This document shows, piece by piece, positions 46,222 through 59,653 of a DNA stretch of 64,000 nt. The first letter of the stretch is position 1; the number at the start of each line of letters is the position of its first letter. The notes under the pieces are model-generated. The model was not told the origin of the DNA. It did not search any database and worked only from the letters and a program-made list of their open reading frames with translations. Position numbers and translations under genes: made by a program. Source of the stretch: an uncultured Gemmatimonadales bacterium. Its GTDB lineage: Bacteria > Gemmatimonadota > Gemmatimonadetes > Gemmatimonadales > GWC2-71-9. Location of the stretch: assembly GCA_963844035.1 (NCBI GenBank), contig CAWJMT010000004.1, forward strand, positions 192,001 to 256,000, written 5' to 3'.

Positions 46222-46685
46222 ATGAACATGTTGCTGGCGTTGGCCCTTAGTGTCGGAGTACTGGTCGCGGTGTTTTACAAGGTCGCGTTCATGCTGAGCA
46301 TGTTGTGGTACGTCGGCCTGATCGGTTGGGCCTGCTTCATGGCCGCCGGTGGGAAACTGAACGGCTTGAAAAAAGCAGCCGTGGCGGGCTCGGAGGCATG
46401 TTCTGGGTGGCGGTCGCCGAAATGACCTCGCTCATGAGCGGCCAGATGCAGATGGAGTGGCTCTTCCTCGCCATTGCGGCATTCATGATCGTCCTCCAGT
46501 CGAGATTGTCCTGGTTCTCGTTCATACCGGCCGGCCTGGCCGGGGCAGCGGTCATCGCGGCGGGTGGGCCCGTGGGAATTTTCGACGCGGTCACCAATTT
46601 CAGACTCGGCGTGGTGTTCGTGCTCGGGACCATCATCGGGTTTATCGCCGAGTTGGCGACGGGGATGCTGGCGAAGAAGGCGTAA
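46222..46685 (+). CDS. DUF1097-like membrane protein (frameshift near 46390)
   Basis: RBS AGGAGG; W..FIGWACF.A.GG-like motif and FSFIP in two frames. Confidence 0.7.
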
Positions 46686-46870: not shown

Positions 46871-48032
46871 ATGGCCGTAGTCGCCGCCGCTCGCGTGGGC
46901 GCCGAGCCACACCCCGCACCAGCTCCCTACTACCTCGTCGCCAGCGCCTTCGCCGCGTTCAGCGTCGTGGTGGGCGTGGTCTGGGACATTTCCTGGCACC
47001 GCTCGATCGGCCGGGACACGTTCTGGACGCCCGCCCACATGGCCATCTACCTGGGAGGCGTCGTCGCCGGCGCATCGTGCGGCTGGCTCGTGCTGCGTAC
47101 GACGTTTGCGCCGGCGCCGGGAGAAGACGCGACCGGCGTGCGCTTCTGGGGGTTCCGCGGGCCGCTGGGTGCGTGGGTGTGCATCTGGGGCGCGATCGCG
47201 ATGATCACGTCCGCTCCGCTCGACAACTGGTGGCACAACGCGTACGGCCTCGACGTTCAGGTGCTGTCACCCCCGCACACGGTGCTCGCCCTCGGGATAT
47301 TCGGAATCCAGTTCGGCGCGCTGCTCCTCGCGCTGGCGGAGCAGAATCGCAACGCACGTGAGCCGGGGCGTTCATACGGCGTGCTGGTCGCCTGCCTCGC
47401 GGGGGTGGTCATCCAGAACGCCTCGATCCTCGGGCTCGAGCAAATCGGTTTCGCGAATGCCGCCCACAGGTCGCTCTACTACAAGGTCGGCGCTGCTGTA
47501 TTTACGACCGCGCTCGTCGCGGCCGGACGAGCCGCGCGGATCCGCTGGGCGGCGACCACGGCGGCAGCGGCATACATGGCGATTTCGCTCATCATGATCT
47601 GGATCCTGCAGCTCTTCCCCGCCACCCCGATGCTCGCACCGGTGTTCAACCCGATCTCGCACATGGTCTCGCCCCCGTTCCCGCTGCTGCTCGTGATCCC
47701 CGCGATGGCGATCGACTTGCTGTTCGAGCATGCGCGGCAAGGTCGGCGACTGGTGGCTGGCCGTTCTCACCGGTTTCGGGTTCCTGGCGGCGTTCGTCGT
47801 CACACAGTGGTTCTTCGCCGACTTCCTGCTCTCGGAACACGCGCGGAACTTCTTTTTCGGCGTGGACCAGTGGGACTATTCCAGCCACCTCGGGCCATGG
47901 CGCTACCGGTTCTGGCGGGTCGACGCTGATCCCGCCACGCCCCGTGGCTTCGCCTGGGCGGCGTTGATCGCGGTCCTGGCGGCGCGCGTGGGGCTGTGGT
48001 GCGGAACGTGGATGGCCAGGATCAAACGATGA
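46871..48032 (+). CDS. Polytopic membrane protein with PmoC/AmoC-like copper motifs (frameshift near 47730)
   Basis: RBS AGGAG; DISWHRSIGRDTFWTPAH and DNWWHNAYGLDVQVLSPPH; about ten hydrophobic segments. Confidence 0.8.
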
Positions 48033-49548
48033 GGCCTCGCGGCCGCCAGCTGCTCCTCGTCGTGGCGGTCGTGCTGTTCAGCTCGGCCCACGTGGGCAGC
48101 CCCGATACGTATTTCGAGGGCACCGCAGGACCCTACCCGGTACGGGTCATCATACGCAGTCCGGGAGTGGTGCCCGGGCTGGCGCAGATCAGCGTGCGAC
48201 TGCTGGGGCGGGGCCCGGTCCGCCGCGTCCTCGTGCTCCCGGTCTTCTGGGACCCCAAGACCGCAGCGCCGCCGCCGCCTGATGTCGCGAAACCCGTTCC
48301 CGGAGACTCCTCGCTCTACAGCGCATCGCTGTGGCTGATGCGCGAAGGAGCCTACAGCGTGGAGGTGACCGTCGAAGGGGCGCAGGGGTCGGGCAGCACC
48401 CTGGTTCCCCTGACGGCGGTCGCGACCCAGCGGCTCGAGCTGCGAGCTCCGCTCGGCGCGCTGCTGGTTGGCCTCGGCGCCCTGCTGTTCGCGGGCGCGG
48501 TCACCCTGATCGCGGCGGCCGCGCGCGAAAGCACGCTCGACCCGGGCACTACGCCCACAGGCAAGGACAGGCGTCGCGCGCGCTTCGCGGCAGCGGGGGG
48601 CACGGTGCTGTTGGCGCTCGCCCTGCTGGGTGGAAAGGCCTGGTGGAACGCGGTGGATGCGGAGCACCGCAGCGGGTTGTTTCGCCCGATGCATGCGACC
48701 GCCACGCTCCGCACCGGTGGCGAGAATCCGGGCCTCTGGCTCGCCATCGACGATCCCGCCTGGCTTGATCCCCGACGCCAGCAGGCACCCCTCATCCCGG
48801 ACCACGGTCACCTGATGCATCTCTTCCTGGTGCGGGACTCGGGGCTGGCGGCGTTCGCCCACCTGCATCCGTTGCCCCGCGGCGTCGCTCTGTTCGCGAC
48901 CGCGCCGCCACCGCTCCCGGCAGGCCGGTACCGTGTCTATGCGGACATCGTCCACGAGAGTGGGTTCACGCAAACGCTGGTCAGCACGGTGGAACTCCCG
49001 GCGCCGAGCACGTGGCGTGCGGCGGACCCGGATGATTCGTGGATCGTCCTGGGGACGGGGGACGGGGGACGGGGGACGGGTACTGACGCGCGGCCCTAGC
49101 CGACGGATCGACGATGACCTGGCGGCGCGGTGCGGGCCCAATCGTCGTGAACCAGGATGCGCAGCTCGCATTCGCCGTCTCGACCCCAAACGGCGCACCC
49201 GCGACGCTCGAGCCGTACATGGGAATGGCCGGACATCTCGTGCTCACGCGGGACGACGGGGCGGTCTTCGTGCACCTCCATCCCGCGGGCACGATCTCGC
49301 TCGCGGCACAGGAGACCTTCGAGTTGCGCCAGCCCGGTGACACGATCCCCGGGGCGCTCGCGAAGCGACTGACGGAGCGCGAGCACGGTGACGCGATGCA
49401 CCGGGCCATGCCCCCCTCCCCCGGCGTGGTCTCGTTTCCGTACGCATTTCCGCAACCCGGCAACTATCGGATGTGGGTGCAGGTCAAGCGCGGCGGCAGG
49501 ATCCTGACAGGCGTGTTCGACGTGGTGGTGCAGAAGACGGGGAGCTGA
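48029..49548 (+). CDS. Exported membrane-anchored His-rich metal-binding protein (frameshift near 49080)
   Basis: Signal peptide ending SSA|HVGSPD, two TM helices, duplicated domain with DHGHLMH/AHLHP and MGMAGH/VHLHP. Confidence 0.8.
49051..49078 (+). repeat. Heptamer tandem repeat (GGGGACG)x4
   Basis: Direct reading; coincides with the frame break in the CDS. Confidence 0.85.
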
Positions 49549-49555
49549 CCAGGCG

Positions 49556-50090
49556 CTACCGAATGATAGTAGGGCGCCGGATGACGCAGGCCGCCCTCGG
49601 GCGTCCTGATCGCCAGGTCGAGCGAATCGGCGTCCCACACGACGATCGTCACGAGGTCGCTCCCCGGCCGCGAACGTCCTGAGGTCCAATCCGGAGAGCG
49701 CCCGCTCTTTGATGGCGCGGCCTTCGAAACCGAGACGATACGGGTGCGTGTGCCACACCCCGATGACACCTGGGACCTGGCTGCAATCCCCGGTTGACCG
49801 AGTTTTCCCGACGCCTCACACCGGCCGCCGGCGCGAGGTGGCGCACCCGGAGCGTGTCACCGGCATGTCGCCGGTCAGGCAGCCGAGGTACGCGCGAGTC
49901 GGCCTGACCGGCGTTCAACCGTGACGTCGAGCTCCACGTCGCGTCGTTCCAGTTGAGGTTGCTCTGTCGACCAGATGGCGGACATCGAGTCCCAAATCGC
50001 GCTGGGGAGCAGGACGACGGTGACCGGCCGCGCCGGTTCCTGCGCGGCCGCCGCGCTCCACACCAGGAGCAGGGCTGCCGCCGCCCTCAT
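49556..50090 (-). CDS. Secreted protein with JAB/MPN-like motif (multiply frameshifted, end uncertain)
   Basis: Signal peptide MRAAAALLLVWSAAAAQ; YLGCLTG, VIGVWHTHP...LSGLD, LVTIVV in shifting frames. Confidence 0.4.
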
Positions 50091-50590
50091 CGCCGCAGCC
50101 GCGCATACGTGCCCATCACCTGGGCCGTGGCGAGCACGTCGGCTGCCCATGGCCTGCTCGACCTCCCCCTTGGACGCGCCGGGCTTGAGCCCGAGCGGCG
50201 CGGCGAGCGCGTACAGCTTGAAGAAGTAGCGGTGCGCCGGCCCGGGGGCGGGCAGGGGCCGCCATAGCCGAGTTTGCGGAAGTCGTTCTTCCCCTGCACC
50301 GCGCCGCCGAGCTCCCGCGGCGCTTCCACCTTGGAAACGTTCTCCGGGATACCGTCGAGCGATGCGGGCACGTCGTAGAGCACCCAGTGAACCCACGTGC
50401 GCCCGGGGGCGTCAGGATCGTCAGCGATCAGCACGAGCGCGCCGGCGTCAGCGGGCACGCCCTTCCAGCTGAGCGGTGGAGAATGGTCGGCGCCGTCGCA
50501 CGTGTAGACCACGGGGATCGGCGCGCCCTCCTTGAAGGCGGTGCTCGTCAGCGAGAGCCCCACGCGTCCCTCCCGGGTTGCGGCGAGCAA
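50087..50590 (-). CDS. YbhB/YbcL family (PEBP/RKIP-like) protein (frameshifted; start uncertain)
   Basis: SP.LSW, DDPDAP..TWVHW, YGGPCPP, HRYFFKLYAL. Confidence 0.88.
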   Translation of the reverse strand: MLAATREGRVGLSLTSTAFKEGAPIPVVYTCDGADHSPPLSWKGVPADAGALVLIADDPDAPGRTWVHWVLYDVPASLDGIPENVSKVEAPRELGGAVQGKNDFRKLGYGGPCPPPGRRTATSSSCTRSPRRSGSSPARPRGRSSRPWAADVLATAQVMGTYARLRR

Positions 50591-50661
50591 AAAAATAACC
50601 AGGCGACGCGCGGAGAGACGGTGGGATGCGCCCGCACACGGTTCGTTGTAGTCTTGACCCC

Positions 50662-51577
50662 ATGAACGATCGGCAGCATCCGGCGATCTACAAGATCGGG
50701 TTGGTCCAGATGGCGATGTCCCCCGATCCGGAGCAGAACCTCCGCACGGCCGTGGCCCGCGTGGGAGAAGCCGGCGCGGCGGGTGCGCGCCTCGTTTGCC
50801 TCCCTGAATTATTCCGGTCGCAGTACTTCGCGCAGCGGGAGGACGCGGCGCTGTTCGATCTCGCCGAGCCCGTTCCCGGTCCCAGCACCGAGGCCCTGGG
50901 CCGCGCCGCGAAGCAAGCCGGCGTCGTCGTGATCGCCCCCGTGTTCGAGCGACGCGCGCCCGGGCTCTATCACAACAGCGCGGCCGTGATCGACGCCGAC
51001 GGCAGCCTCGTGGGCCTGTATCGCAAGATGCACATCCCCGACGACCCGGCCTACTACGAGAAGTTCTACTTCACGCCGGGCGATCTCGGGTTTCGCGTGT
51101 TCGACACCCGCGTCGGACGTATCGGCACGCTGGTCTGCTGGGATCAATGGTATCCCGAGGGCGCGCGCCTCACCGCGCTTCAGGGGGCTCACATCCTCCT
51201 CTATCCGACCGCCATCGGATGGCATCCTGCCGAGAAAGCGACTCACGGCGCCGCACAGCTCGACGCGTGGCGCACGATCCAGCGCAGCCACGCCATCGCC
51301 AACGGGGTGTACGTGGCGGCGGTAAACCGGGTGGGCCACGAGCGCCCGGCGACCGGGGCCGACGGGATTGAGTTCTGGGGCAATTCGTTTCTCGCCGATC
51401 CGTTCGGCAGCCGTGGTAGCGCAAGCGCCGGCGGATCGGGAGGCGGTCGTGGTGCACGAGGTGAATCTCGCGCGCATCGAGGAGGTCCGCCGCGGCTGGC
51501 CGTTCCTGCGGGACCGGCGGATCGATGCGTATGGCGGGATCGTGGAGCGGTTCCTCGATGCGAGACGCCTGCCGTGA
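50662..51577 (+). CDS. aguB: N-carbamoylputrescine amidase (carbon-nitrogen hydrolase; frameshift near 51410)
   Basis: PELF, YRKMHIPDDP.YYEKFYF, CWDQWYPE triad, WPFLRDRR; next to agmatine deiminase. Confidence 0.85.
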
Positions 51578-51595
51578 AACTGACGCTGACGTCTG

Positions 51596-52645
51596 ATGTC
51601 TGACGGCTTCGTCATGCCCGCCGAGTGGGAGCCGCACCACGCCACCTGGATCGGCTGGCCGCACAACGCGACCGACTGGCCGGGGAAGATCGCCGTGATC
51701 CCGTTCGTGTACGGCGAGATCGTACGGCGGCTCGCGCCCGGCGAGGTGGTCCGGATCCTCGTCAACTCCGCCCAACACGAAGGCCAGGCACGCCGCCTGC
51801 TGGCGCGTGTCGGCGTCGCGCTCGATCGGGTCGACTTTCTGCGGTTCCCCACCAACCGCGGCTGGACGCGCGACTTCGGGCCATGCTTCGTGCGGCGCGC
51901 GGGGCCGCCCGCCGAGCTCGCGATTGCGCGCTTCCGCTTCAACGGCTGGGCCAAGTACCGCAACTGGGCCAAGGACGACCGCATCCCCGAGCGCGCGGCG
52001 CGGCACCTCAAACTGCCCTTGCTCCGCGCCCGGGCCGGGGACCGCGACGTGGTGCTCGAGGGCGGGAGCATCGATGTGAACGGCCGCGGCACGTTGCTCA
52101 CCACCGAGGAGTGCCTGCTCGATCGCGCCGTCCAGGTCCGCAACCCCGGGCTCGGCCGCAAGGAGCTCGAGCAGGTACTGCATGCGTCGCTGGGCGTGAC
52201 CAACGTCCTCTGGCTTGGGGCCGGCATCGCTGGTGACGACACCCATGGACACGTGGACGATCTGTGCCGCTTTGTGGATCCGCACACCGTCGTCCTATGC
52301 CGTGAAGCCGATCCCAAGGACGCGAACTACCGGCCGCTCGAGGAAAACCGCGAGCGGCTCGAAGGGATGCATCTCCAGGATGGGACGAAGGTCGAAGTGG
52401 TTTCCATCCCCATGCCCGCCCCGGTGTACTTCGAGGGTCAACGACTGCCGGCGAGCTATGCGAATTTCTACATCGGCAACGCGGCCGTGTTGGTGCCGAC
52501 CTTCAACGACCCCAACGACCGTGTGGCACTCGGGATTCTCGCTGAGTTGTTCACCGATCGGCCAGTGATCGGCATCCATGCCGTTGATCTGGTGTGGGGA
52601 CTCGGCACGATTCACTGCCTCACGCAGCAGGAGCCGGAACTCTAG
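51596..52645 (+). CDS. aguA: Agmatine deiminase family protein
   Basis: MPAEWE, WTRDFGP, EGGSI, DDTHGHVD, G.IHC.TQQ. Confidence 0.92.
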   Translation: MSDGFVMPAEWEPHHATWIGWPHNATDWPGKIAVIPFVYGEIVRRLAPGEVVRILVNSAQHEGQARRLLARVGVALDRVDFLRFPTNRGWTRDFGPCFVRRAGPPAELAIARFRFNGWAKYRNWAKDDRIPERAARHLKLPLLRARAGDRDVVLEGGSIDVNGRGTLLTTEECLLDRAVQVRNPGLGRKELEQVLHASLGVTNVLWLGAGIAGDDTHGHVDDLCRFVDPHTVVLCREADPKDANYRPLEENRERLEGMHLQDGTKVEVVSIPMPAPVYFEGQRLPASYANFYIGNAAVLVPTFNDPNDRVALGILAELFTDRPVIGIHAVDLVWGLGTIHCLTQQEPEL

Positions 52646-53109
52646 GCGACGGCCGTCGGTGGCAACTCGACGATCTCCAGCCAGTAGCGGCCCAGCACGT
52701 TCATGGCTTCCACGAACCCCGCGAACGTAACCGGCTTCGTAATGAAGGAGTTCACGCCCAGCTGGTAGCTTCGGACGATGTCCTCGTCGAGCCGTGACGT
52801 GGAGAGCACGACGACCGGAATGTCGTGCAGGGTCTTGTCTCCCTTGATCACCTTCAGGGCCTCGCGCCCATCCATCTTCGGCATGTTGAGATCGAGCAGG
52901 ATCAATCCGGGGCGCGGGGCTTTGCCCGTCTCGCCCGCGTACTCGCCGCGCTGGTAGAGGTAGTCGAGCAACTGTTCGCCGTCCTCGACGAATTGCACGT
53001 TGTTCGATATGTGTGCGTCGTCGAGAGCGCGCTGCGTGAGCAGCCGGTCGTCCTCATCGTCGTCGCAGATGAGAATCGTGATCGGGATCGTGTTCTTCGT
53101 TTGCATCAT
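52642..53109 (-). CDS. Single-domain response regulator (Rcp1-like)
   Basis: DDDEDD, LLDLNMPKMDG, SY.LG.NSFITKP. Confidence 0.93.
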   Translation of the reverse strand: MMQTKNTIPITILICDDDEDDRLLTQRALDDAHISNNVQFVEDGEQLLDYLYQRGEYAGETGKAPRPGLILLDLNMPKMDGREALKVIKGDKTLHDIPVVVLSTSRLDEDIVRSYQLGVNSFITKPVTFAGFVEAMNVLGRYWLEIVELPPTAVA

Positions 53110-54276
53110 GCCAGATACCTTGTGGCCGCCTGCGTGACCGGCAGCGTGACTGTGAACGTCGCACCGTTGCCGACGGTGCTGGTCGCGGCGATCGTGCCGC
53201 CGTGCCGCTCGACGATCCTTCGGCAAAGCGCCAGACCAATGCCCGAGCCTTCATACTGCGCCCGGCCGTGGAGTCGCACGAACATTCCAAAGATCTTTCC
53301 CGCGTGCTTCTCGTCGAACCCGATCCCGTTGTCCGTCACGGTGATCGCACGGTACTGGGCGTCGGGGCTCGAACAGCTGAGCCGGACGACCAGCGGCGTG
53401 TCCTTCCGGCGGTACTTGAGCGAATTGCCGAGCAGGTTCTGCAGCAGCTGGCGCATCTGGAGCGGATCGGCAGCGATCACCGGCAGCGCCCCAACCTCCA
53501 CGCGGCCGCCCGACTCCGCGATGGCCGTCTCGAGGTCGGCGATAACCTCTCGGGCAATTCGGGCAAGGTCTGTGGAGACGAACGGCTGGACTCGAGTGCT
53601 CACCTGCGAATACAGGAGCAGGTCGCTGATCAGGGTTCGCATGCGGGCGGCTGCGCTGAGCATGCGTGCGAGGTACTCCTTAGCATTGCCTTCGAGCGCC
53701 GGCCCCGCGGACGTGCTCAGCAGGTCCCCGAACGACAGGATCTTGCGCAGGGGTTCCTGCAGATCATGCGACGCGACAGACGCGAACTCGTCCAGCGCCG
53801 CGTTCGAGCGCTGCAGCTCGCGGTGCTGCTCCGCCAGGCGCCATTCCGTGAGGCGGCGTTCCGTGACGTCTTCAATCGCCAGCAGGATGATACGCGGAAC
53901 GTTCGGTCCTTGGGACACGAGCCGGGCGTTGAGCAGCATGATCTTGCGGCCGATACCGGGAAACTCGTGAATCGACGTCGAAATCGTTCAGGTGCGGTTC
54001 CACCGCGAGCTTGTCGCGCAGCAGCTCGCGGAGGGGCGCAATGTCCCATTGGCCGTCGCCGAGCGTGAAGAGGACCTCGCCGATCGTGTCCTGGGGCTCC
54101 ACGCGAAAGGTGCGAAAGAACGCGCGATTCGCCTGGGTGACGCGAAATTCGGCGTCCAGGACGATGAGGGGCTCCCGGACCGTGTCGATGATATCGAGCA
54201 GCAGGCGCTGGGCGGCGGGCACATCGCGCGCCGCCGCGTCGGAGTAGGTCGGTGTTAAGGTCTCGATGTCCGGCAC
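53106..54276 (-). CDS. PAS-domain sensor histidine kinase (frameshift near 53965)
   Basis: PAS (REPL.VLD...ANRAF), SHDLQEPLR H-box, DNGIG, GSGIGL. Confidence 0.88.
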
Positions 54277-54444
54277 AGCCGTCCCCCTCGATCAGCCCGG
54301 GACGTAGGGTACCGTAACCAGAGGACGGGAGCCATCGCCCATTGGAGTTAATCGTGCTCAACCACCTGCAGCCTCAGGGCTTATGCCCCGATACGATCAC
54401 CGGGACCCGGAACGATCCACGTCCTCACGCTGCAGGCCGGGGCA

Positions 54445-56066
54445 CTAGGCAGTACGCGCTGTTATCCACTCCCGCGCCGCGTCGATCTCGCCTTCGGTCA
54501 CCCCATGACCGCCGGGCTCCCAGTGGAGCGTGACGGCGGCCCCCGCCTGGCGGAGCAACTCCGCGAGCCGCTCCGCTTGCGCGACGGGAACCATCGGGTC
54601 TGTACGCCCTGCCCCGATGAACACGGCGGTGCCCGCGAGCCCGGGCAGCGGATCCGGCTCGAACGGCACCATAGGACTCAAGAGCACCGCGCGGCGCAGT
54701 AGCCCGGGGCGCCGCAGCAGTAGACTCGCGGCGATGTTCGCGCCGTTCGAGAACCCCACCGCTACAATGCCGTCGCGATCGAGCGTGTACGTCTTGGCGG
54801 CGCCCGCGATGAACTCCGCCAGCTCCTCGGTGCGGCGCGCCAGATCCTCCTGGTCGAACACGCCCTCGGCGATGCGCCGGAAGAACCGCGGCGCGCCACG
54901 CTCGAGCACCTTGCCGCGGGGGCTCAATAGCCCGGCCCCCGGGAGCAGCGCCCGCCCCAGCGGGATGAGGTCTTCCTCGTCGCCGCCAGTCCCGTGCAAG
55001 AGCAGCAGGGTGGTCCGGCCCGCACGCTCGGCCCTCGCGGTGGGTGGGAGGTAGCGATGGATGAACCCGAGCGCATCAGCGCTCACGTCCTCGGGGCCCG
55101 TCGCGCTGTTCAGGAGCGCGGCGGCGGATTCGGGAGCGGGAAGGTGAATCGACGGCAGGATGGCCTCGATCTCCGGGCGGTGCGCCTCGTACTGGGGCGG
55201 CAGCATCAGCCGCTCCCCCAAGCGCTCGACCGGCTCGTCGATTGCGAAGCCGGGCGGGTCGGTCGCGACCTCGAACAACACGCCCCCTGGCTCCCGGAAA
55301 TAGACGGAGTGGAAGTACTGCCGGTCGATCACGGGCGTAGGGCTCATGCCCGCCTTCACGACCTGCTCCCGCACAGCGAGCTGCCCGGCGTCATCAGCCA
55401 CGCGCCAGGCCACGTGGTGCACCGTCCCCGCCCCGCCCGCGCCGCGCACAAAGCCGCCGACGGAGCGCACGTCCACGATCGTTCCCGGCCCGCCATCGCC
55501 GACCGCAAAGCGGCGGGTGGTGCCGTCTTCGCTCACCTGGCGGAAACCGAGCGTATCTACCAGGACCTGTTCCGTGTCGGTCGCCTCGCTCGACCCACAG
55601 GGTCACACCGTGAAACCCGTGGATCGCGTGCTCACGCGCAATGCCGGCGTGCGTCGCCCCAGGCGGACCTGGCTTCGGCGCCGGAATGGCCCACGATCTC
55701 GAGCATCGACCCGTCAGGGTCTGCGAAGGAGATGACCTGCTTGGTCGGCCCCTGGTACTTGATCCCATGGCGCAGCAACCGCTCGACCCAGAATCCCAGC
55801 GCGCGCGGGAGCACGGCGAACGATGTGACGGCGACCTGCCCCGTCCCGTGGCGCCCGCGCCGGGCGCCGGGCCACGGAAAGAAGGTCATGATGCTGCCTG
55901 GGTGGCCGACGTCGTCGCCGAAGTAGAAGTGGTAGGTCTCGGGATCGTCGAAGTTCACCGTGCGCTTGACGAGGCGTAGGCCGAGTACGCCCACGTAGAA
56001 ATCGAGGTTGCGCTGCGGGTCGCTCGCGATCGCGGTGACGTGATGGATGCCGAGGACGCTGGTCAC
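54445..56066 (-). CDS. Ring-cleaving dioxygenase (MhqO/PcpA-like) fused to alpha/beta hydrolase (MhqD-like); frameshifted near 55560-55660
   Basis: GIHHVTAI..KRTVNFDDP..YHFYF; HHVAW; YF.SVYFREPGG.LFE; then LLHGTGG, GFSNG, GHG. Confidence 0.85.
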
Positions 56067-56071
56067 GGGCG

Positions 56072-57348
56072 CTACGGTGTCGCTTCAGCTCCCGCGTGGC
56101 GCCCGCCGCGCCACGCGGCATACGTCCAGATGAGCCCTCCCACGAGCACCGCGACCGGGATGATCAAGACCGCCTCAGTGAGGGACGTCCGGTCCGAGAG
56201 GATCCCCAGTAAGGCAGGCGAGGGCACGTCGCCGAGCGCGTGAATCGCGAAGATGCTCGCGGCGATGGCGGTGGCGCGCATCTCGGGGGAGACGAGGTTG
56301 ATGATGGCGGAGTTGATCGGGCCCGTGGTAGCGAACAACAGCAGCTCGGCTGCGACGATACCACCCCAATATGCCAACGGATCGGGCGAGCTGAGCGCGA
56401 CCAGGGCGCAGGGTGCGGCCAGGAGCGTCACCACGCCCGACACCCAGAGGTACGACTGCTTGGTGAATCGCAGCAGATAGTCACCTACCCAGCCGCCCAC
56501 AAACGTCCCGACGAACCCGGTCCCGACGAGGATCGAGACCGAACCACGTGGTCGCCGCACCTTCGGGGATGCCCCGCACCCGGATGAGGAACTTCGGCAT
56601 GAACGCGGCCATGCCGCCCAGCGCGAACGTGTAGGCGGCGTACCCGAGCACGGTCAGGAGGTATGGACGATTGCGGCGCAGCACCGCGTAGGCCGTGCGC
56701 ACGCCAGCCCAGGCGGTGGAGGCGAGCGGCGCTACGGCAGGCCGGGGATCGTTGACGCCGCGCGGCGGGTCGTACAGCCGCAGCGCCAGGAATGCGAGCA
56801 CGATACCTGGGAGCCCCGCCACGAAGAACGCGTTCCGCCACCCGAAGTGGACGTCGATCTGGCCGCTGACGATGTAGCCCAGGGCCGACCCGATCGGGAT
56901 CGCCGCGAAGAATATCGAGAAGATTCGCCCGCGATGCGACCGCGGGTAGTAGTCGGAGATCAGCGTCGGCGCGATGGTCCCGTAGGCCGCTTCGCCGATG
57001 CCGACGGCGGCACGCGCCACGAGCAGGCTCGCGAAGCTCCACGCGATTCCGCCCGCCACCGTGGCGAGGCTCCAGAGCAACACGCCGAGCGCAATGAGCC
57101 GCGGACGCGATCGCGTGTCGCCCAGCGCCCCGAAGATCGGCGCCGCGACCATGTAGACGATGATGAAACCGCTGATCAGCAGGCCGAACTGGGTGTCGCT
57201 GATCCCGAGCGACGAGTGCCGGAGGCTCTCGCTCAGACGCCGCGGGCACGTAGCGATCCAGGTAGTTGAGCAGGTTGATCGCCGTGAGGATCACGAGACC
57301 ACGGCGCGCGAGGCGCCCGGAATCGGTCACGACGGCGGGCCCGCTCAT
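56072..57348 (-). CDS. Spinster-family MFS transporter (frameshifted)
   Basis: LNYLDR, RA.VGIGEAAY..IAPTLISDYYP, HALGD.PSP. Confidence 0.88.
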
Positions 57349-57370
57349 CGAGCGATAGGGGAGGTCCCGG

Positions 57371-59577
57371 CTACAGGTTCTTTTGCAGCCACTCGGTGAG
57401 CAACCCGAAGACGTTTTCGCTCGTGTTGCCGCCGGAGATGGAATGGGTCTTGTTCGGGTAGATGCGCAGATCGAACTGCTTGTTGGCGCGCTCCAGGCGC
57501 TGCACCATCTGGATGGTGTTCTGGAAGTGCACGTTGTCGTCCCCCGTGCCGTGGACCAGCAACAGACGGCCCTTCAAGCTGTCGGCGTACGCCATCGAGG
57601 AGCCTTCGTCGTAGCCATCGGGATTCTCCGCCGGCGTCAGCATGTAGCGCTCGGTGTAGATCGTGTCGTACAGGCGCCAGTCGGCGACCGGGGCGACCGC
57701 GATCGCCGCCCTGAACACGCCGCCCCCCACGAACAGGGTGCGCGACGCGACGTACCCGCCGTAGCTCCAGCCCCACAGTCCGATGCGAGCCGGATCGACG
57801 TAGGGAAGTGCGCCGAAGTAGCGCGCCGCGGCGATCTGGTCCGCGGATTCGAAGCGACCGAGATGGAGGTACACCTGGCGCTTGAAGCGCGCGCCGCGCC
57901 CGCCCGTGCCCCGGTTGTCGACGCTCGCGACCAGGTAGCCGTCGCGCGCCAGCTTCTGGAACCACAGGTAGTACGCCCCGCCCCACGCGTCCAGCACGGT
58001 TTGGGATCCCGGCCCTCCGTACGCCCACATGAGCAGCGGGTAGCGCTTCGCGGGATCGAAGTTCCGCGGCTTGATCACCGACGCGTTCAACACGGTCCCG
58101 TCCGACAGACGAATCTTCGTGAACTCCGGGGGTGCCAGGCCGAGCGCGGCAACCTTCGCCAGCGCCGCGCGGTTGTCGGCGAGGGTCCGCACGACGCTGC
58201 CATCCGCGCGGCGCAGCACCTGCACCGGCGGCACACCCGCCCGCGAGTAGGTGTCCAGGTACCACCGGCAGGTGAGATCGAGCTCGATGTTGTGGGTTCC
58301 CGAATCGGTCGAGATCCGCGTGAGGCCCCGGCCGTCGAGCCCGATCCGGAGAAACGGACGGGTGAGCGGACCGTCGATCGTGCTGCTGAAGTACAGGGTC
58401 CGCGCTTTCTCATCCACGCCGTGCACGGTCGTGACATCCCAGTCGCCGGGGGTCACGCGGCGGACCAGCGCTCCGGCGCGCGTATAGAGGTAGACGTGCG
58501 AGTACCCGTCGCGATCGCTTTCGAACAGGAACTGCTTGCCGCCGTCGATCCAGAGCGGCCGATGTCCGTACTCCACCCACGCCGAATCGGTGTCGGTCAT
58601 GATGACGCGTGACGGAGCCGGTCTTCGCGTCGGCCAGGATCAGGTCCAGGCGGTTCTGATGGCGGTTGAGCCGGGTGAGCCAGACCTCGGCCGGCGCGTC
58701 GGCGAAATCCATCGCCGGCACGTAGATGTCGGTTTCGGCGCCGAGGTCGATCCAGGTCGTGCGGCCGGTTGCGAGCTCCACCACGCCGATCTGCACCTTG
58801 GAGTTCGGCGTCCCCGTCTTGGGATACCGCACCGGCATGAGCACCGGGTAGAGCGAGTCGGCATTGAGCAGGAAGAACGGCCGCACCGCCGTCTGGTCTA
58901 ACCGCCAGAACGCGATCCGCTGGCCATCCGGACTCCAGCGAAAGGCGTCGCGCAGGTCGAGCTCCTCCTCGTACGCCCAGTCGGTCGTGCCGTTGATGAT
59001 GTTCTCGTCCCCATCGGTCGTGAGTGCGGTCTCCGCGCCCGTGGCGAGGTCGGTCACGAATACGTTGTTGTCACGCACGAAGCCGACCTGTCGCCCGTCC
59101 GGGGACAGCTTCGCGAACATCTGGTAGCCGGGCTTGGTGCTGATGGGCAGGAGGCGCTTGGCGGTGAAATCCCAGACGAAGAAGGTGCCCTTGGTGCGCT
59201 GCCGCCAGACGCGCGCCGAATTGGTGAAGATGAGAAGCTTCGTGGCGTCCTTCGAGAACTGGTAACTCTCGACGTCGATCGCGTCCCGTCCGCCCGCGGG
59301 AACGAGGTCCTCCCCGCGCACCAGGAGCGTGCGGCCGCCGCTCGCCGCATCGACCCGGTACAGGTTGGTCTGTCCGGCGCTGTCGTCGAGGACGGTGTAC
59401 GCCGAGCCGTCCCGCATCCACTGGATGTCGACGAGATCGTTCGCAAACTCCCGTGAGGCGAAAATCGAGCGGACCGATAGCTCCGGCGCCTGGCCCGCGA
59501 GCGGCGACGCCAGCTGCACCAGCAAACCAAAGACGAGGCCGCGTACCGGCCGTCGGCGACTCGGCGCGAAGGTCATG
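57371..59577 (-). CDS. S9B dipeptidyl-peptidase IV (frameshift near 58610)
   Basis: DWAYEEE, YPKTG, GWSYGG nucleophile motif, DDNVH, H triad. Confidence 0.92.
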
Positions 59578-59653
59578 AGAACCACCAATCAACAAGGATA
59601 TGGGAACGCCAAACTTAGCCGCCCAACGGGCGCGCGAGCGAGTCCTGGTGCCC

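Follow-up and report, generated by a model that had tools for sequence, protein, structure and literature searches.

We describe a pair of tandem genes in a 64,000-nucleotide stretch of DNA from an uncultured Gemmatimonadales bacterium (contig CAWJMT010000004.1, positions 192,001 to 256,000; hereafter, the window). The two genes, which we call CA (46871..48032) and B (48029..49548), lie on the forward strand, and we put at roughly one half the probability that their products assemble in the membrane as a two-protein complex with a likely role in copper handling. CA is a homologue of both the PmoC and the PmoA subunits of particulate methane monooxygenase (pMMO), fused in one chain, while B, judged by profile comparison and predicted fold, is an analogue of PmoB and not a homologue. 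According to PMC6215863, xmoCAB is the gene order of the copper membrane monooxygenases (CuMMOs), to which pMMO and ammonia monooxygenase (AMO) belong. As CA combines a PmoC-like half with a half of PmoA fold and B lies downstream, the pair reproduces the order C-A-B. The layout works like that of a CuMMO, and the use of metal probably does too, but by the B-subunit and family-model tests CA-B is not a member. A preliminary description, made from the sequence of the window alone, had proposed a two-subunit complex that is CuMMO-like or acquires copper; the co-occurrence of the two genes and their predicted interface, presented below, agree with that proposal.

CA as a fusion of PmoC and PmoA

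CA encodes a polytopic membrane protein of ~385 residues with two sets of candidate metal ligands in its PmoC-like N-terminal half. The first set, D-x3-H-x12-H (46985..47038; Asp codon 46985, His codons 46997 and 47036), is accompanied by an R-D-x-F-x-T-P motif and aligns to the CuC site of PmoC. The second, D-x3-H-x13-H (47222..47278; Asp codon 47222, His codons 47234 and 47276), has the spacing of the CuD site of PmoC, with Asp for Asn. In PMC13058606 and PMC11725843, the ligands of the C subunit are defined as one Asp and two His for CuC and one Asn and two His for CuD, and the active site of pMMO and AMO is built from both sets. A single alignment places D35/H39/H52 and D114/H118/H132 of CA in register with CuC and CuD. 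All six ligand positions are invariant in the 72 family members compared (72/72), each of which has an Asp where CuD has Asn, and the second-sphere motif R-D-x-F-x-T-P is invariant or nearly so.

In profile comparisons, CA matches PmoC with an hhalign probability of 75 over the whole protein and 87 over the N-terminal half, cross comparisons remain below 2, and 0/20 block shuffles score as high; the C-terminal half matches PmoA with a probability of 74, again with 0/20 block shuffles as high. The second ligand repeat alone does not match PmoC significantly (probability 0.7), and the structural match between CA and PmoC is middling (Z 6.5). The model of CA, built from an intact relative, has two halves (pTM, the predicted template modelling score, 0.91). 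For the C-terminal half, the ten best fold matches are all A subunits of pMMO or AMO (Z 12.0-12.8; next unrelated match 8.7), with a root-mean-square deviation (rmsd) of 3.6-4.8 and 174-214 residues aligned, over about 190 residues; Foldseek gives a probability of up to 0.99 with E above 0.1. The same half also resembles cytochrome b561 (Z 11.3, rmsd 3.4, 159 aligned) and the S components of energy-coupling factor (ECF) transporters (5edl, Z 9.4, rmsd 3.9, 164 aligned). The GDWDFW-x-DWKD motif of PmoA is absent from the CA family consensus; it is invariant in 27 PmoA sequences, which were selected by it. The preliminary description called the partner of B PmoC-like and thereby under-called it, missing the PmoA-fold half.

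None of the Pfam or NCBIfam subunit models matches above cut-off, the AmoC model (PF04896) giving weak matches in 2/72 CA members (best E 0.012). The first ligand set of CA is the only match to the AmoC profile in its own genome, below cut-off, and no AmoC above cut-off was found in that genome or in 5/5 other carrier genomes. We rejected weak AmoC Pfam matches as evidence in their own right: a pair found in genome G301 (E 3e-5 and 0.012) consists of unrelated membrane proteins without the ligands. Searches of PDB sequences with CA returned no match, Pfam and NCBIfam have no family for either CA or B, and the ESM Atlas offers nothing beyond unnamed clusters.

When the two ligand sites are compared with each other, they appear as repeats of one motif, with a probability of 98 in actinobacterial relatives and 95-97 across families, versus 35 within the two-gene CA family and 0.15 within PmoC. 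Because the two sites are recognisable as repeats in this way, the comparison suggests that CuC and CuD may have arisen by tandem duplication.

B and its predicted complex with CA

The ATG of B at 48029 is read within an ATGA (48029..48032) that it shares with the TGA stop of CA, an overlap already seen in the preliminary description. The N-terminus is signal-like: a predicted Sec signal peptide (48029..48088) with a basic N-region and a hydrophobic core ends in S-S-A (...LFSSA), followed by His21 (48089..48091) at the predicted +1 of the mature protein. The His-first mature start (HVGSPD here) foreseen earlier is supported across the family, in which a His follows a signal-peptidase-type site in 80/80 loci. 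Residue -1 is Ala or Gly in 78/79 parsed loci, one further locus (L078, with HVNS) being judged by eye, and in 119/119 database relatives with the motif retained (2/121 are truncated). Signal peptidase would, on this pattern, cleave B just before the His.

The model of an intact relative of B (pTM 0.90; pLDDT, the predicted local distance difference test, 93.9) comprises an all-beta domain of ~110 residues, two transmembrane (TM) helices and two beta domains, in line with the beta-rich domain and TM hairpin expected from the sequence. Domain 1 (48089..48421) is a predicted immunoglobulin (Ig)-like beta-sandwich, CrdA/CopC-like, with invariant W82 and M84. The hairpin (48452..48652; helices at 48452-48532 and about 48578-48652) has an Arg-rich, likely cytoplasmic loop and provides the main predicted interface with CA. 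Domain 2 (48692..49000) contains DHGHLMH...AHLHP, with His codons at 48803, 48809, 48818, 48860 and 48866. Domain 3 (49093..49548, stop at 49546-49548) contains YMGMAGH...VHLHP, with Met codons at 49219 and 49225 and His codons at 49234, 49273 and 49279, and a variable His/Met-rich loop. The two domains had been described as related, and profile comparison agrees (hhalign probability 81, E 1.2e-5). Across an alignment of 78 mature B sequences, from which L021 and L078 were excluded, H1, M84, H239, H244, H258, H260, M376, M378, H381, H394 and H396 are invariant (78/78). Domain 1 has no second conserved His, its sole other His being present in 44/78.

In a fold search with the whole 481-residue model of B, the best match for domain 1 is CrdA of H. 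pylori (9ll2; Z 10.4, rmsd 2.6, 103 aligned), which is also its best PDB sequence-profile match (E 0.0084). Lower matches include CopC (5icu; Z 7.8, rmsd 3.3, 95 aligned) and HftA/Tp34/P19 (Z 7.7-7.9). All matches listed for the soluble domains are Ig-like; cupredoxins are absent from this whole-model list, as are PmoB, lytic polysaccharide monooxygenases (LPMOs) and CREST-type hydrolases, the list leaving room for families beyond it. Against an alignment of 13 PmoB/AmoB sequences drawn from metagenome operons, B reaches a profile probability of 1.3 as a whole and at most 6.4 per domain. Given the lack of a PmoB profile match and the predicted Ig-like domains, the likeness to PmoB is confined to topology, and the doubt about PmoB homology voiced in the preliminary description was well placed. 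It is very improbable that the operon is a bona fide CuMMO whose B descends, with much divergence, from a true PmoB: the shared topology, in which His1 opens a soluble domain and two TM helices separate this from a soluble C-terminal part, would fit, whereas the profile scores, the Ig-like fold matches, a domain 1 without HxH and the presence of three soluble domains where PmoB has two all speak against it.

Relatives of B number 3092 matches among 7996 scored candidates and are single proteins of ~500 residues, the best being 81% identical. Domains 2-3 also have relatives among unnamed proteins of two domains in Actinomycetota, Cyanobacteriota, Bacillota and haloarchaea. Such relatives occur in 46 plasmid records (E up to 1), and four of these two-domain proteins, all encoded in metal islands on plasmids, were compared with the domain 2 and domain 3 profiles and match with E between 5e-13 and 4e-28. 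Three of the four lie in copA/copZ clusters, one is fused to an HMA domain, and the fourth lies near a multicopper oxidase. The copper-linked relatives of the domains, together with the missing PmoB match, lead us to regard B as a PmoB analogue built of parts associated with copper handling. Separately, two-domain proteins with the His motifs stand beside copA/copZ in four phyla (L328 4500-5495, L329 5344-6222, L330 4557-5318, L332 1770-2708); Pfam has no model for them or for domains 2-3 of B.

Structure prediction supports 1:1 binding of CA and B, as the preliminary description had suggested checking. The predicted pair has an ipSAE of 0.83, compared with 0.00 for the best of 3 controls; this mark is passed by 116/157 solved complexes versus 2/215 mismatched pairs, counts that apply roughly here since we used our own alignments. 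Runs share at least 95% of contacts, with a partner pLDDT of at least 84. TM1 of B would pack on helix 3 of the partner, placing domain 1 (W82, M84) over the second ligand loop, residues 118-125. As B has no likeness to PmoB beyond topology, it is less probable that the pair scored well through pMMO structures already known to the predictor.

Single-chain relatives in Actinobacteria carry the same parts in the same order. They were found first through plasmid searches and then among 7992 candidates, of which 479 passed; WP_024126299.1 is an example. In 116/121 fusions of suitable length, both ligand sets are present along with a basic-hydrophobic segment that ends in A-x-A and is followed by His-Asp-Pro-Gly-Gln-Gly. 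The His is found in 115/116, with Ala at -1 in 114/115 and at -3 in 109/115. The domain and TM helix that come next in the fusion are in register with domain 1 and TM1 of B (probability 66, E 5.6e-5), a score that 0/20 block shuffles reach. We read the fusion as a putative C-A-B polyprotein in which an internal signal-peptidase site would free the His terminus. It lacks domains 2-3, which are therefore dispensable in the actinobacterial branch. We examined five of six plasmid records with the fusion, the protein of the sixth being 100% identical. Four of these five loci have genes for CopA, CopZ, CsoR, multicopper oxidase or cupredoxin within 10 kb, whereas the fifth offers no more than a regulator of the CopY family and a YHS protein. 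A Rubrobacter plasmid carries the CA partner alone, split.

The preliminary description took B as a single gene over 48029..49548, which does not hold in the assembly: the frame from 48029 ends at a TAG (49097-49099), and a different frame (49093-49548) encodes the domain with MGMAGH. In relatives, B is intact at about 500 residues. The break lies in a linker segment (49051..49099), after four GGGGGAC-type heptads (49051-49077). CA is likewise split near 47733, and a DUF1097 gene is broken near 46388. Contigs of close relatives from public runs have one base more at 46388 (3/4 runs) and one base fewer at 47733 (2/4 runs); across 48999-49099, a single contig from 1/4 runs, at a depth of 4.7, has 100 letters versus 99 in the window. 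Since these one-base differences each restore a frame, assembly errors are the likely cause of the breaks in all three genes, and we conducted the analysis on intact relatives, mainly locus L001 (Gemmatimonadales), whose B is 66% identical to P0001 and whose partner is 75% identical to CA of the window. Further along, the list of open reading frames (ORFs) for 50087-59588 has several genes each as two ORFs in different frames, which suggests an indel-rich assembly; we take these to be YbhB-like, sensor kinase, ring-cleavage dioxygenase-like, major facilitator superfamily and dipeptidyl peptidase-like genes. It seems improbable that, independently of the family's behaviour in other genomes, the operon is a pseudogene in this one or undergoes phase variation at the heptads. 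The frameshifts in both B and CA and the G-rich repeat adjoining the break in B would suit this account; the same kind of break in the adjacent DUF1097 gene, the further split genes, the single-base differences that reopen the frames, the repeat of relative P0004 (same register, in frame) and the intact B and CA of 3/3 same-genus genomes argue against it. Two side observations concern this region: the heptad stretch is the sole part of it matched by many unrelated contigs, and the DUF1097 membrane protein (46222-46685), upstream of CA, is a neighbour in only about 4-5/80 loci.

Distribution, context and competing explanations

To survey the family we took 600 candidate stretches in GTDB genomes, 523 of which had a relative, and kept the best 80 loci, mostly from Gemmatimonadota and Acidobacteriota. 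CA is present in the locus of B in 78/80; of the two misses, one begins close to the end of its contig and the other carries a cassette insertion. The junction is an NTGA overlap in 37/77 loci and adjacent without overlap in 37. In a phylum sample of 301 genomes, B was found in 67, CA in 70 and both in 66, supporting the co-occurrence that the preliminary description had named as a check (66/67 B-bearing genomes). The sole B-only genome is a contig-edge case, and the four CA-only genes show truncation, internal stops or loss of the half that bears the ligands. Within the phylum of G301, B occurs in 7/151 genomes, with the centre and the unpublished G329 included. A cultured strain of the Bacteroidota, Chondrinema litorale, encodes the pair (OQ292_RS32125/32130), and no relative was found in viral contigs.

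Several individual loci differ from this pattern. In G112 and G149, CA-like genes (L334 4544-5644, L335 4847-6334) keep the PmoA-like half and have lost the C-half ligand motifs; no B was found in either genome, so that loss of the metal sites accompanies loss of B. In L006 (187-2778), CA and B form one 863-residue frame that lacks the last residues of CA and most of the signal N-region of B; seen in one genome only, it is either a true in-frame fusion or a misassembly. A long CA-B fusion, 1 protein among 7994 candidates, was set aside as an artefact, its middle being seemingly out of frame. A cassette encoding a small Tat-like protein, a GMC oxidoreductase, an unnamed protein and a C92 peptidase lies between CA and B in 2/80 loci (L005 1261-5977, L014 1-3784) and is tied to CA by an ATGA overlap; it is possibly an electron donor, possibly a mere insertion. 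A TlpA-like redoxin gene, sometimes with a CcdA/DsbD-like gene, is found in L032, L033, L043, L049, L052, L057, L064 and L079, and on the plasmid of M. chubuense such a pair also neighbours the fusion.

If CA-B handles copper, B would be cleaved to a His-first periplasmic protein and dock on the PmoC-PmoA-like CA through TM1 and domain 1. Its His/Met sites would catch copper and then hand it over to the two Asp-His-His sites of CA, in a role in copper homeostasis (buffering, transmembrane hand-over or a change of copper redox state) and not in the oxidation of methane or ammonia. The coupling and co-occurrence of the genes, the invariant His/Met residues, the homology of the CA halves to PmoC and PmoA and that of domains 2-3 to proteins from copA/copZ surroundings are established by comparison. 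The Ig-like folds and the 1:1 interface come from models, and we infer that B is cleaved, that the metal is copper, that it moves from B to CA and that the role is homeostatic. Several points weigh against this account. CA retains the ligand sets of the pMMO/AMO active site, which fits catalysis as well as transfer. The evidence from copper islands rests on distant relatives and on plasmids, where islands of this kind abound; in the two-gene loci, probes for CopA, CopZ, multicopper oxidase, CsoR, Csp, CueR and CopY found 0/80 (930 kb), and none in the window. Neighbours of CA-B are lineage-specific among the 80 loci, and in 68 upstream regions we found no dyad or palindrome shared beyond kin groups. 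CopD is present in 41/66 carriers versus 156/234 non-carriers, which gives no sign that CopD takes the place of CA-B; in the family of the present genome the figures are 8/31 versus 50/94, with no overall difference, with kin that are not independent and with the unpublished G157 in the tally. Z below 8, the range of the CopC and P19 matches, is frequent between Ig folds, and the CopC score is middling. Finally, His1 of B lies outside the listed interface residues, and domain 1 offers it no second conserved His.

The alternative that CA-B belongs, as a divergent form, among the copper membrane oxygenases or oxidases has a real chance, though one well short of even. A quinol-fed site of CuC/CuD type in CA would then act on a small or lipid-soluble substrate, with B loading and shielding the copper in the manner of PmoB. 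This would account for the two ligand sets in register with PmoC (probability 75-87), the second-sphere motif, the PmoA fold of the C-terminal half, the gene order, the cap that B forms over the second ligand loop, and the occasional GMC cassette (2/80) and upstream TlpA/CcdA-like pair (about 8 loci). It has to contend with a B without PmoB homology, the absent GDWDFW motif, the middling structural match to PmoC, the lack of a recurrent downstream oxidation pathway among the neighbours and the fused relatives in copper-resistance islands. Asp-His-His sets are not specific to copper, and the sites might bind Zn, Fe, Mn or Ni in a membrane hydrolase or a transporter of that metal. The Asp for Asn at the second site, the likeness of the C-terminal half to cytochrome b561 and that of domain 1 to iron/copper proteins of P19 type are compatible with this. 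We nevertheless consider it improbable: the His-first termini, the Met pairs that never vary and the relatives encoded beside copA/copZ point to copper, and the models place the four His near one membrane face, unlike the heme ligands of b561.

A broader proposal, which we regard as unlikely on balance, is that CA-B represents a second architecture of copper membrane monooxygenase, completed independently of the first. In it, C and A would be fused, an unrelated Ig-fold B would have converged on the His-first, two-helix design of PmoB, and Actinobacteria would make all three parts as a polyprotein for signal peptidase to cut. As its copper sites are still visible as tandem repeats, the family may stand closest to the scaffold behind pMMO and AMO. 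How pMMO/AMO originated and how CuB and CuC/CuD share their work are debated, and CA-B, which keeps the CuC/CuD ligands and the A fold and swaps the fold of B, offers a natural separation of those parts in 67/301 sampled genomes. Since Streptomyces and Mycolicibacterium, which can be cultured, carry the single-gene form and a cultured Bacteroidota strain carries the pair, such questions become testable in tractable hosts. A true copper-handling device would be of an undescribed kind; a true oxygenase would imply unfamiliar soil chemistry, perhaps with an unrecognised substrate, in abundant soil bacteria. In the literature searched, which did not extend to most subscription journals, we found no description of the CA-B family, and none of close relatives of pMMO/AMO outside the CuMMOs.

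Comparison with known systems

Parts of CA-B resemble several known proteins. CopC begins with a copper-binding His and, like CrdA, shares with domain 1 of B an Ig-like beta-sandwich of ~100 residues; domain 1 differs from CopC in lacking a second His, a Pfam CopC match and a CopD neighbour, and in being membrane-tethered. The conserved second His of the LPMO His brace is likewise absent from domain 1. Compared with CrdA, domain 1 has a Pro-rich loop in place of the Met-rich copper motif described in PMC9182242. The tandem motifs H-L-x-x-x-R...H-x-H-P and Y-L/M-G-x-x-G-H...H-x-H-P of B recur in ABM10420.1 (Paenarthrobacter pTC1) and WP_010993968.1 (Nostoc pCC7120beta), but such two-domain, copA/copZ-adjacent proteins have no domain 1, TM hairpin or CA partner. 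The ECF S components share the fold of the CA C-terminal half, but within the 80 loci the operon has neither a recurrent T component nor a recurrent ECF ATPase.

The closest parallels are the subunits of pMMO and AMO. PMC13058606 gives AmoB/PmoB a topology of His1, a soluble domain, two TM helices and a soluble C-terminal part. PmoB/AmoB (Monooxygenase_B) and B each combine a signal peptide, a His at +1, a soluble domain, a TM hairpin and a soluble C-terminal part, are encoded after C and A, and dock (in B by prediction) on a C-like subunit. B differs in that its soluble domains are predicted to be Ig-like, where those of PmoB are cupredoxins, in having three of them instead of two, in lacking HxH in domain 1 and in showing no profile similarity. 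CA differs from PmoC/AmoC and PmoA/AmoA in being one chain with its C part cut to four helices, in its Asp for Asn, in lacking GDWDFW and in falling below the Pfam cut-offs, and its sites are still recognisable as mutual repeats whereas those of PmoC are not. What CA has in common with these subunits is D-x3-H-x12-H and D/N-x3-H-x13-H in register, joined to the PmoA fold.

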